A stretch of DNA of 64,000 nt, taken from the NCBI RefSeq assembly GCF_003790525.1, contig NZ_CP033635.1, one strand, 5' to 3'. The position numbers were made by a program, and so were the translations under genes. Below are positions 23,427 to 26,184 of this stretch, one piece after another. Position 1 is the first letter of the stretch, and each line of letters begins with the position of its first letter. The notes below the pieces were generated by a model, which did no database searches, was not told the origin of the DNA, and saw nothing but the letters and a program-made list of their open reading frames with translations. The DNA comes from Escherichia coli (GTDB taxonomy: Bacteria; Pseudomonadota; Gammaproteobacteria; Enterobacterales; Enterobacteriaceae).

Positions 23427-24803
23427 ATGTCTACGAAATTATGGGGCGGACGTTTTGATATGCCAACAAATAAACTCGTTGAACAATATAATGCAACTAT
23501 CACGCTGGAGCAGCGCCTATGCCCCTTTGATATTCAAGGAAGCATAGTTCATGCCACGATGTTAGGACGTCAGGGAATAATCACACAGGATGAAGCCAAT
23601 ACAATTATTAGAGGTTTGAGACAAGTAAGTAAAGAAATTGAAGACGGCCAATTCATTTTCGATACTGTAGATGAAGATATTCATATGGCCATTGAAAGAC
23701 GGATGACTGAAATTATTGGCCCTGTTGGTGGTAAACTCCACACGGGGCGAAGTCGTAATGATCAAACCACTGTTGATTCTAAAATGCATATGCGAGCAAT
23801 TATCCGTGAAATTCAAGAGGATATTACCAACCTGCAAAAAATAATAATTAACAAAGCAGAAAACAATATTAATGTCATCATGCCAGGCTATACTCATTTG
23901 CAAACAGGTCAGCCCATTCTTTTATCTCACTGGATTATGGCATATTACTGGATGTTGCGTCGTGACTGGAATAGGTTTGAAGATCTGTATCAACGGATGG
24001 GAGAATGCCCTTTGGGGGCAGCGGCTCTCGCCGGTACGACATTCCCTATTGATCGTAATTTTACGGCTCGTGAACTTGGTTTTGATAAGCCAACTGAGAA
24101 TAGTATTGATTCTGTCAGTGACCGCGACCATATGGTCGAATTCACCGCGGCAGCAGCGATGTGTTTTATGCATCTAACTCGCCTTTCAGAGGAACTGATT
24201 TTATTCTCTAGCCAAGACTTTAAATTTATTGAACTTTCTGATGACTTCTGTACAGGATCCAGCATCATGCCGCAGAAAAAGAACCCTGATGTGGCGGAAA
24301 AAATGCGTGGTAAAGGTGGGAGAATGTATGGAAATCTGATGGCCATGCTGACTATTATGAAAGGCATACCGCTAGCGTATAATACAGACATGAGCGAGGA
24401 TAAAGAGCAGGTCTATGACTCAATGGATACTCTACAGGCCAGCTTAAGAATAATGGCACCTATGATCGAAAAAATGGTTATCCTTGCCGAAAATACGCGT
24501 GCAGCAGCCGCTCGAGGATTCTCGAATGCAACAGATATGGCCGATTATCTGGTCCGTAAAGGTATTCCTTTCAGAGAAGCTCACCATATTGTTGGTAGTG
24601 CAGTAAATTACTGTATTAAACATAAAAAAATGTTAGAAGAGCTTACTATGGAAGAATTCTCCACATTTGATAATAAAATAGAAAAAGATATTTATGAAAG
24701 TATTTCTCTGGAGGCTTGCATTAAGGCCAGGATGTCTTATGGTGGAACCGGACCTGATGCTGTCAAAAAACAAATAGAGATTGCAAAATCACTTTTAAAA
24801 TAG
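23427..24803 (+). CDS. argininosuccinate-lyase-family (fumarate lyase superfamily) enzyme, AT-rich paralog
   Basis: ORF 23421..24803; N-terminal LWGGRF and central GSSIMPQKKNPD signature; AGGAGG Shine-Dalgarno 6 nt before the second ATG. Confidence 0.8.
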   Translation: MSTKLWGGRFDMPTNKLVEQYNATITLEQRLCPFDIQGSIVHATMLGRQGIITQDEANTIIRGLRQVSKEIEDGQFIFDTVDEDIHMAIERRMTEIIGPVGGKLHTGRSRNDQTTVDSKMHMRAIIREIQEDITNLQKIIINKAENNINVIMPGYTHLQTGQPILLSHWIMAYYWMLRRDWNRFEDLYQRMGECPLGAAALAGTTFPIDRNFTARELGFDKPTENSIDSVSDRDHMVEFTAAAAMCFMHLTRLSEELILFSSQDFKFIELSDDFCTGSSIMPQKKNPDVAEKMRGKGGRMYGNLMAMLTIMKGIPLAYNTDMSEDKEQVYDSMDTLQASLRIMAPMIEKMVILAENTRAAAARGFSNATDMADYLVRKGIPFREAHHIVGSAVNYCIKHKKMLEELTMEEFSTFDNKIEKDIYESISLEACIKARMSYGGTGPDAVKKQIEIAKSLLK

Positions 24804-24867
24804 TTAAGAATTATAATGTTTAAGATTCCCCGGATATTATATCCGGGAATATCTTTGAGGTTGAAAA

Positions 24868-26184
24868 ATGGACGCTCTATTTTTTATACAACTATTTATT
24901 GTTCTGGCCTGTATTGGAATCGGCGGAAAATACGGCGGAATGGGGCTTGGTGCTGGAGGTGGGTTAGGGGTTGCAATATTGGTTTTGGGCTTTGGACTGA
25001 AACCCTCCTCTCCCTCCATTACTGCTATGTTAATTATTATTTGTGTTATTAGTGCTGTCAGTATATTACAAGCTGTTGGAGGATTAGATTATTTAGTCAG
25101 GGTCGCAGAACGGATACTCCGTAAGAAACCACAGGCGATAACCTTTGTAGCGCCAATATTAACTTCAGTATTTACACTATTTTGTGGGACGACTTATGTC
25201 GCTTTCTCCTTATACCCTGTTATTGCTGAAGTCGCCGCTGAAGCAAAAGTACGTCCAGAACGTGCATTATCTGCAACGGTCATTGCAGCCAGTGTGGCAG
25301 TGGCTGCCAGCCCTATGAGTGCAGCAACTGCCGGGATGCTGGCTATACTTCATGAGTATGCAGGGATCACGTTAGGGCAAATATTATCTATTGCCCTTCC
25401 TTCGTTTTTTATGGCTGCAATTGTTACCAGCTTTTCAGTCTACAAGCGTGGTAAAGAACTGGAAGATGATCCTGAATTTCAAAGGCGTGTTGCAGCAGGT
25501 GAGTATGAGTTCATGCACACCGAACAGAAAAAAGAATATGTCGCTGCACCAGGTGCAAGAAAAGGGGTTGCTATTTTTGCCATAGGAGTCGTGCTGGTCC
25601 TTATTCTCGGATCTTTTACTGAGCTTCTTCCGTCGTGGGATGGAAAAAGATTATCAACCCCAATGGTCATCCAGATGATTATGTTGACTGCAGCTTTATT
25701 GATCATGATTGTGGGGAAAGTTCCAAGCAATAAATTTAACAGTGGCTCTGTGTTCCGTGCTGGTTTGATGGGGGTTGTGGCAATACTTGGTGTTTCGTGG
25801 ATGACTGCAACATTTTTTGATGCTTATCAGGCAGAGCTGATCAATGTTTTTGGCAATCTTGTAAATGATGCGCCTTTGCTGTTTGGCTTTATCGTATTCT
25901 TGTTTTCTCTGGTGATCATGAGCCCGGCTGCGACAGTAGCTGCGATTATGCCATTAGGAGTCACCCTGGGTATTCCTGCACCTTATCTTATTGCAATTTT
26001 TGCCTGTACTTGTGGTGATTTTATTATACCCGGAGCGAATCAGATTGGTTGTGTGGCGTTTGACAGAACTGGTACTACCAGAATTGGGCGCTTTGTTATC
26101 AACCATAGCTATATACGTCCTGGGTTCGTCATGGTCATTTCCCAGGTTGTTTTTGCCTACTTAATTGCGCAGGTTATTCTGTAA
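24868..26184 (+). CDS. DcuA/DcuB-family anaerobic C4-dicarboxylate transporter paralog
   Basis: 438 aa multi-TM ORF with Dcu-family N-terminus (…GGLDYLVRVAERILRK…) and C-terminal FDRTGTTRIG motif. Confidence 0.8.
   Translation: MDALFFIQLFIVLACIGIGGKYGGMGLGAGGGLGVAILVLGFGLKPSSPSITAMLIIICVISAVSILQAVGGLDYLVRVAERILRKKPQAITFVAPILTSVFTLFCGTTYVAFSLYPVIAEVAAEAKVRPERALSATVIAASVAVAASPMSAATAGMLAILHEYAGITLGQILSIALPSFFMAAIVTSFSVYKRGKELEDDPEFQRRVAAGEYEFMHTEQKKEYVAAPGARKGVAIFAIGVVLVLILGSFTELLPSWDGKRLSTPMVIQMIMLTAALLIMIVGKVPSNKFNSGSVFRAGLMGVVAILGVSWMTATFFDAYQAELINVFGNLVNDAPLLFGFIVFLFSLVIMSPAATVAAIMPLGVTLGIPAPYLIAIFACTCGDFIIPGANQIGCVAFDRTGTTRIGRFVINHSYIRPGFVMVISQVVFAYLIAQVIL

Follow-up and report, generated by a model that had tools for sequence, protein, structure and literature searches.

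The lyase-Dcu1 gene pair

We analysed a 64-kb stretch of Escherichia coli DNA (the window, meaning the whole of that stretch) in which a gene for an ArgH-family lyase (23427..24803, plus strand, 458 amino acids, G+C 0.41; WP_000105004.1 in strain SMS-3-5) is followed by a gene for a Dcu-family (PF03605) transporter, here named Dcu1 (24868..26184, plus strand, 438 amino acids), its conserved 3′ partner. The two genes are separated by 64 bp and lie on the same strand, and both products score above the cut-offs of their profiles, as expected from the earlier note, which had placed an ArgH-family lyase directly upstream of a Dcu transporter. The start at 23427 that the note had given for the lyase agrees with the RefSeq annotation and is preceded, 6 nt upstream, by AGGAGG; a longer open reading frame (ORF) from 23421 encodes 460 amino acids, compared to 458 from 23427. 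The spacer contains a GC-rich hairpin (CCCGGATATTATATCCGGG; 24829..24847, plus strand), a pattern match that resembles a terminator with a weak T tail.

The lyase scored 614.9 bits against the TIGR00838 argH profile (cut-off 279.5) and has a full-length architecture in which PF00206 (Lyase_1) and PF14698 (ASL_C2) are both present. It aligned end to end with Thermus thermophilus 2E9F (457 bits), E. coli 1TJ7 (410 bits), and duck delta2-crystallin 1K7W (386 bits), and it carries the superfamily signatures GRSRNDQ and GYTHLQ as well as the GSSxMPxKxNP loop, which reads GSSIMPQKKNPD in this protein. The enzyme is a member of the aspartase/fumarase (class II fumarate lyase) superfamily.

Database searches returned several hundred sequence clusters with 63-100% identity to the lyase, from Citrobacter, Budvicia, and Limnobaculum, from Photobacterium and Enterovibrio (Vibrionales), from Sutterella and Parasutterella (Sutterellaceae), from the Campylobacter lari group and Helicobacter, and from the Negativicute Anaerosinus. 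Since this range of identity spans three phyla, we conclude that the gene has moved by horizontal transfer. A neighbour-joining tree built from the proteins of the fetched loci placed these sequences, which we call clade A (65-100% identity), in a monophyletic group nested in bacterial ArgH, with a second group from Parasutterella and Turicimonas (clade B) as its sister. The next outgroup to both clades was the ArgH of Deferribacteraceae, which has the canonical signature, followed by those of Fusobacteria and Clostridia. Clade A is therefore a derived offshoot of bacterial ArgH. The window lyase is 45-53% identical to canonical bacterial ArgH, with approximately 45% identity to E. coli ArgH, as judged by eye from the alignment.

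The gene neighbourhoods of clade A and of canonical ArgH differ sharply. A Dcu gene was found 62-182 bp downstream, on the same strand, in 23 of the 26 evaluable clade-A loci, and argG was nearby in none of the 26; among 52 loci with a canonical ArgH signature, 43 had an adjacent argG and none had a Dcu gene. The pairing of lyase and Dcu genes, seen in three phyla, is far beyond chance. The transporters that occupy this position behind clade-A lyases are 55-62% identical to Dcu1 across phyla and 92-94% identical in Citrobacter. Dcu1 itself matches NF006927 (460.3 bits, cut-off 369) and TIGR00770 (418.6 bits, cut-off 331.35) over residues 5-438. Because its identity is no higher than 36-38% to the two other full-length copies of the DcuA/DcuB type in the window and approximately 50% to the second transporter of its own cassette (Dcu2, below), Dcu1 and its positional orthologues form a subgroup of their own. 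The description of Dcu1 as a DcuA-family transporter holds at the level of the family, PF03605.

Fixed substitutions in the substrate pocket

We compared the pockets of 134 canonical representatives with those of 112 clade-A sequences, using duck delta2-crystallin numbering, which equals the residue number in the 460-amino-acid ORF plus 3. The catalytic and fumarate-site residues S114, R115, N116, T161, H162, T281, S283, K289, N291, D293, E296, Y323, D330, and K331 were identical in the window lyase and at every clade-A locus. Among the 112 positions that are at least 80% conserved in the canonical set, exactly five were switched and fixed in clade A, namely D33E, V119T, L297K, K/R325T, and Q328S (E30, T116, K294, T322, and S325 in the numbering of the 460-amino-acid ORF). 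The switched residues were fixed in 91-100% of the clade-A sequences and occurred in no more than 1.5% of the canonical representatives. Q328 and D33, present in 100% and 96% of the canonical set, respectively, were both replaced in 100% of clade A. None of the five switches is more than 3 residues away from a known active-site residue (Fisher p = 0.01), and further clade-A changes were R/K165T, A166G, and, in most sequences, S29T. The comparison with bona fide ArgH that the earlier note had suggested gave a divided answer, the catalytic and fumarate-site residues being canonical and five other near-invariant pocket positions not.

Several of the altered positions have been characterised in animal enzymes. 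S29 and Q328 are annotated substrate contacts, and D33 and K325 are reportedly among the residues whose mutation lowered the activity of the duck enzyme. Lys325 (K323 in goose) is an active-site residue that forms a hydrogen bond with Glu296 (PMC2779060). In human argininosuccinate lyase (ASL), K323E and Q326H (PMC6167905) and D31N (PMC7232106) have been seen in patients with ASL deficiency. Variants found in patients thus fall at three of the five positions switched in clade A. By analogy with adenylosuccinate lyase, the segment 323-331 should hold the leaving group and not the fumarate part of the substrate. The switched residues would then belong to the leaving-group part of the pocket, an assignment for which we draw on that analogy and on the duck delta2-crystallin complex.

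The cassette and its genomic island

The gene pair is part of a four-gene cassette (lyase, Dcu1, Dcu2, and a GntR regulator with an FCD domain) that is found in E. coli, in five Citrobacter species (84-94% identity), in Budvicia, and in Anaerosinus. Dcu2, the second Dcu-family transporter (26300..27615, minus strand), matches its profile only from residue 44. Compared to SMS-3-5, the window copy lacks one base of a C6/G6 homopolymer near its 5′ end (at approximately 27524, within 26300-27658), a 1-bp deletion that puts the first ~30 codons out of frame and is the sole difference between the two sequences across 26200-27800; the window gene could be a pseudogene, an N-terminally altered variant, a phase-variable tract, or the product of a sequencing error. 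The GntR/FadR-type regulator (27770..28426, plus strand) is divergent from Dcu2 and is presumed to regulate the cassette. Between E. coli and Citrobacter, the lyase and Dcu1 had ratios of nonsynonymous to synonymous substitution rates (dN/dS) of 0.02-0.03, and the regulator, in the one informative comparison, had a ratio of 0.03; from these values, which indicate purifying selection, we conclude that the three genes are functional.

Upstream of the lyase, sequence conservation points to a predicted sigma-70 promoter (TTGACA, 16 nt, TATAAC; 23337..23364, plus strand) that lies approximately 60 bp from the gene, in the only upstream block whose sequence is conserved in both E. coli and four Citrobacter species. 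An FNR-like palindrome at 23142..23155 (TTGACTTTTATCAA) differs by one mismatch from TTGAT-N4-ATCAA; a perfect one (TTGATTTTTATCAA) is present at the C. werkmanii locus, and the palindrome is not conserved at three other Citrobacter loci. The spacing between the palindrome and the predicted promoter is non-canonical, and this candidate box offers only a hint that FNR may control the cassette. We found no convincing ARG box upstream of the lyase, where the best matches had 4-5 mismatches of 18 in AT-rich DNA. A scan with Rfam models of the window and eight clade-A loci detected no riboswitch near the cassette, for guanidine or otherwise, a null result that neither supports nor refutes a guanidine-releasing reaction.

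The cassette is part of an accessory island next to tRNA-Asn and cobUST, a mosaic patchwork of insertion sequence (IS) elements and pseudogenes in which the genes of interest have a G+C of 0.40-0.44. The segment with the lyase-Dcu1 pair is present in 151 of 5426 complete E. coli genomes, and positions 23000-26400 of the window are 100% identical to SMS-3-5 and other strains. Because a housekeeping argH, in an argC-argB-argH-oxyR context, is present in 5425 of the 5426 genomes, the island lyase is always a second argH-like copy. No arginine genes were found around the lyase within the window, its neighbours being pseudogenes and Dcu and aspartate genes. Together with the housekeeping argH elsewhere in the genome, this bears out the remark of the earlier note that the pair stands outside any arginine-biosynthesis context.

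On the 3′ side of Dcu1, the order is Dcu2 (minus strand), the GntR/FCD regulator, an orphan DcuR-like response regulator (29405-30130; NF007750, 313 bits) 1 kb past the cassette, an ansB paralogue, a Dcu gene, and an aspA paralogue. Paralogues of pepT and dcuC follow (the extra copies from ansB to dcuC occupy 30724-38628), then a beta-aspartyl-peptidase homologue (40214-41275), and finally an amino-acid racemase beside a fourth Dcu gene. The aspA-like lyase scored 645 bits, slightly below the aspA equivalog cut-off of 681. The racemase gene, of the Asp/Glu-racemase family (60536-61255), scored 250 bits on the model 'cysteate racemase CuyB' (cut-off 190), and the fourth Dcu-family gene (61314-62612) follows it directly as another pair of enzyme and Dcu transporter in the island. 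With its ansB, aspA paralogue, three more Dcu/DcuC genes, pepT, beta-aspartyl peptidase, and racemase-Dcu pair, the island is a collection of aspartate- and fumarate-supplying genes. A dcuS remnant was sought in the 980 bp between the two regulators (28426-29405, AT-rich, G+C 0.36), where there was no ORF longer than 57 amino acids and no sensor kinase partner for the DcuR-like protein.

Upstream of the lyase, the island contains pseudogene fragments of clbP, a thioesterase gene, and dgoD (as in the SMS-3-5 annotation), an IbrA/IbrB-like pair, and a TonB-dependent receptor gene. The clbP and thioesterase scraps are small remnants of the colibactin island. Within 17588-19761 and 20360-22957 we observed a frameshifted TonB-dependent receptor gene, an IbrB-like gene with an internal stop, and an intact IbrA-like gene whose product resembles 3′-phosphoadenosine-5′-phosphosulfate (PAPS) reductase. 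Elsewhere in the window, group II intron domains (RF02001 and RF01998, 38948-39236) adjoin a maturase gene just past dcuC, tRNA genes lie at 8209-8281 (minus), 10030-10102 (plus), and 12439-12511 (plus), and matches to the small RNAs isrC and STnc490 were obtained at 51872-51994 and 58604-58727.

A further copy of the block is carried by a 184-kb conjugative IncFIB/IncI plasmid from a wastewater E. coli (locus L091; NZ_AP022088.1, 125666-145039). At the protein level, this copy is 97.8% identical to the chromosomal one, and its lyase gene has the same neighbours. The plasmid block comprises a TonB-dependent receptor, the IbrB/IbrA-like pair, the lyase, Dcu1, Dcu2, the FCD regulator, dcuR, ansB, dcu, and aspA; the receptor gene is intact on the plasmid and frameshifted in the chromosomal copy.

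Possible reactions of the lyase-Dcu1 unit

The gene order resembles that of E. coli aspA-dcuA, and of the aspA-paralogue/dcu/ansB group of the island itself, in that a fumarate-releasing lyase of the same superfamily is followed on the same strand by a Dcu carrier in a fumarate-respiring host. It differs in that the window lyase comes from the ArgH branch and is not an aspartase, and in that the cassette includes a GntR/FCD regulator of its own as well as Dcu2. From these sequence features we hold with moderate confidence that the lyase works with Dcu1 as a catabolic unit, mobile by horizontal transfer and similar to aspA-dcuA, that releases fumarate from an imported N-substituted aspartate. 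The Dcu-type antiporter would import an N-substituted L-aspartate (a '2-succino' compound), probably against succinate; the cytoplasmic ArgH-derived lyase would convert it by the beta-elimination usual in the superfamily into fumarate and an amine; and fumarate reductase would reduce the fumarate to succinate, which would leave by antiport. This logic of importing a substrate, releasing fumarate, and exporting succinate is borrowed from aspA-dcuA. Four elements of the scheme are inferred: which way the carrier moves its substrate, the connection with fumarate respiration, the region of the pocket concerned, and a change of substrate. Since the pocket has changed, a physiological substrate other than ordinary argininosuccinate, or in addition to it, appears the likelier case. 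More tentatively, the substrate could be an unrecognised N-succino metabolite of gut and aquatic habitats, for example an analogue of argininosuccinate with a shortened or altered tail, such as guanidinosuccinate or N-carbamoyl-aspartate, which together with a dedicated Dcu antiporter would constitute a new electron-acceptor route.

Several observations weigh against this reading. The lyase scores as a very good ArgH and has kept every catalytic residue, so that it may still cleave argininosuccinate. Five of the seven substrate-contact positions of the database annotation are kept, and S29T is a conservative change. The candidate FNR site is poorly conserved, and Dcu2 is frameshifted in the window. 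Three clade-A loci are without a Dcu gene: L016, on a contig from a metagenome-assembled genome (MAG), where the clade-A gene lies between the genes for DAHP synthase and gltX; L023, a Helicobacter contig; and L017, a Campylobacter MAG with the synteny of locus L005 (below) and the lyase. In the genomes of these Dcu-less loci, the clade-A protein could be the only ArgH.

The scaffold is in all other respects that of a textbook ArgH, so that a change of substrate falls short of proof, and the main rival is therefore a true ASL used for scavenging. Such an enzyme would act catabolically on exogenous argininosuccinate, yielding arginine as a source of nitrogen or as a substrate of the arginine deiminase (ADI) pathway and fumarate as an electron acceptor, with the five switches neutral or compensatory. 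The TIGR00838 score of 614.9 bits against a cut-off of 279.5 and the complete conservation of catalytic and fumarate-site residues favour it, K325T and L297K could represent a charge swap beside E296, and the Dcu linkage and island context suit any fumarate-releasing reaction. We nevertheless consider it unlikely. Free argininosuccinate is scarce outside cells, and as a large tricarboxylate it is unlike the known Dcu substrates. The cassette contains no arginine-catabolic genes, residues present in all (Q328) or 96% (D33) of the canonical set are replaced throughout clade A, and patients with ASL deficiency have been found to carry changes at the corresponding human residues (PMC6167905, PMC7232106).

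It is also conceivable, if improbable, that the cargo of Dcu1 is an ordinary C4-dicarboxylate or L-aspartate and that the lyase acts on an intracellular metabolite, either like an aspartase or in the synthetic direction, joining an amine to fumarate taken up from outside. The substrates of known Dcu carriers are aspartate, fumarate, malate, and succinate. The gene order is like that of aspA-dcuA, and the reactions of the superfamily are reversible (PMC13411527). An aspartase-like activity would, however, be expected to come with a pocket closed around ammonia, whereas the residues at 325 and 328 have become smaller; an aspA paralogue with a Dcu of its own is already present in the island, and the surroundings of clade-A genes show no conserved biosynthetic partners. 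The simplest explanation, that the gene is a redundant duplicate of biosynthetic argH brought beside a transporter by chance, would suit the RefSeq annotation, which is simply argH, and an island made up of IS elements and pseudogenes. It is strongly disfavoured by the pairing in 23 of 26 loci over three phyla with argG never near, by the fixed switches, by the strong purifying selection, and by an identity to E. coli ArgH of only 45% (by eye); the linkage statistics effectively exclude a simple redundant biosynthetic copy.

Taken together, the suggestion of the earlier note that this lyase is non-biosynthetic and supplies fumarate in concert with a Dcu transporter gains from its status as an accessory second copy, the Dcu linkage without argG, the five fixed switches, and the island context; the canonical catalytic and fumarate-site residues and the strong ArgH score leave argininosuccinate as a possible substrate. 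Clade A is a transporter-linked and probably specificity-shifted branch of ArgH and not a new category. With canonical ArgH/delta2-crystallin (EC 4.3.2.1; TIGR00838) it shares the fold, the length, Lyase_1 and ASL_C2, the residues Ser283, His162, Lys289, and Glu296, the GSSxMPxKxNP loop, and the fumarate site. It differs in its five fixed switches, in having no adjoining argG and nearly always a Dcu gene, and in being accessory and horizontally transferred. A precedent for an ASL scaffold that splits other succino-amines into fumarate and amine is given by ethylenediamine-N,N′-disuccinate (EDDS) lyase and other ASL-family C-N lyases, PDB entry 6G3D, deposited as 'argininosuccinate lyase', being presumably an EDDS lyase. 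The 6G3D-type lyase is much more distant from the window lyase (222 bits, compared to 410-457 for true ArgH); it was from canonical ArgH, and not from the 6G3D branch, that clade A recently arose.

Fumarate respiration that draws on aspartate and malate is known to promote colonisation by enteric bacteria, and a further mobile module that converts a substrate to fumarate would point to an unrecognised nutrient niche. The clade-A module occurs widely in Sutterella and Parasutterella and is found in Campylobacter, and a conjugative plasmid carries it in E. coli; if the proposal is true, the new electron-acceptor route would be common to Sutterellaceae, the Campylobacter lari group, Vibrionales, Citrobacter, and a minority of E. 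coli. Annotation pipelines name the whole subfamily, hundreds of sequence clusters, 'argH, arginine biosynthesis' despite its catabolic genomic behaviour: RefSeq labels the island lyase argH, and the record of the plasmid copy has the Gene Ontology (GO) term 'arginine biosynthetic process'. Such mislabelling matters to metabolic reconstructions and auxotrophy predictions. With five substitutions in the pocket of a scaffold that is in other respects canonical ArgH, clade A also provides a clean natural experiment for enzyme specificity. A full-text literature search found no paper on an ArgH-like/Dcu module; one match, a Yersinia 'putative argininosuccinate lyase', was rejected as an ordinary argH.

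Related arrangements were observed outside clade A. Clade B (Parasutterella, Turicimonas) likewise stands in a non-arginine context, with an EamA-type transporter, a Dcu gene approximately 1 kb downstream, and a GntR regulator; unlike clade A, it has kept L297, K325, and Q328 and has V29, E33, and C119. The same Sutterellaceae genomes also encode a distant 500-amino-acid ArgH-like paralogue in a non-arginine context, with a Dcu gene 154-197 bp downstream (L009, 1426-4339; L034, 3966-6728). This paralogue is only ~30% identical to the window lyase, scores 374 bits on TIGR00838, and is equally close to the 6G3D-type lyase and to ArgH. The pairing of lyase and Dcu transporter thus seems to be a recurring design in the ArgH family.

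Genes for M20 amidohydrolases and MmgE/PrpD proteins turn up repeatedly in the vicinity of the pair in Sutterellaceae and Campylobacter; as they are not conserved across clade A, they were left out of the mechanism. At locus L005 of the Campylobacter lari group (8001-17282), the pair lies between katA with an ankyrin-repeat gene and a PAS_6/HTH_22 regulator gene, past which follow genes for RidA, DcuC, a Cys/Met-PLP enzyme, an adenylosuccinate-lyase-like protein, and an MmgE/PrpD protein. C. jejuni presumably has the same gene order minus the pair, which would make the pair at L005 an insertion.

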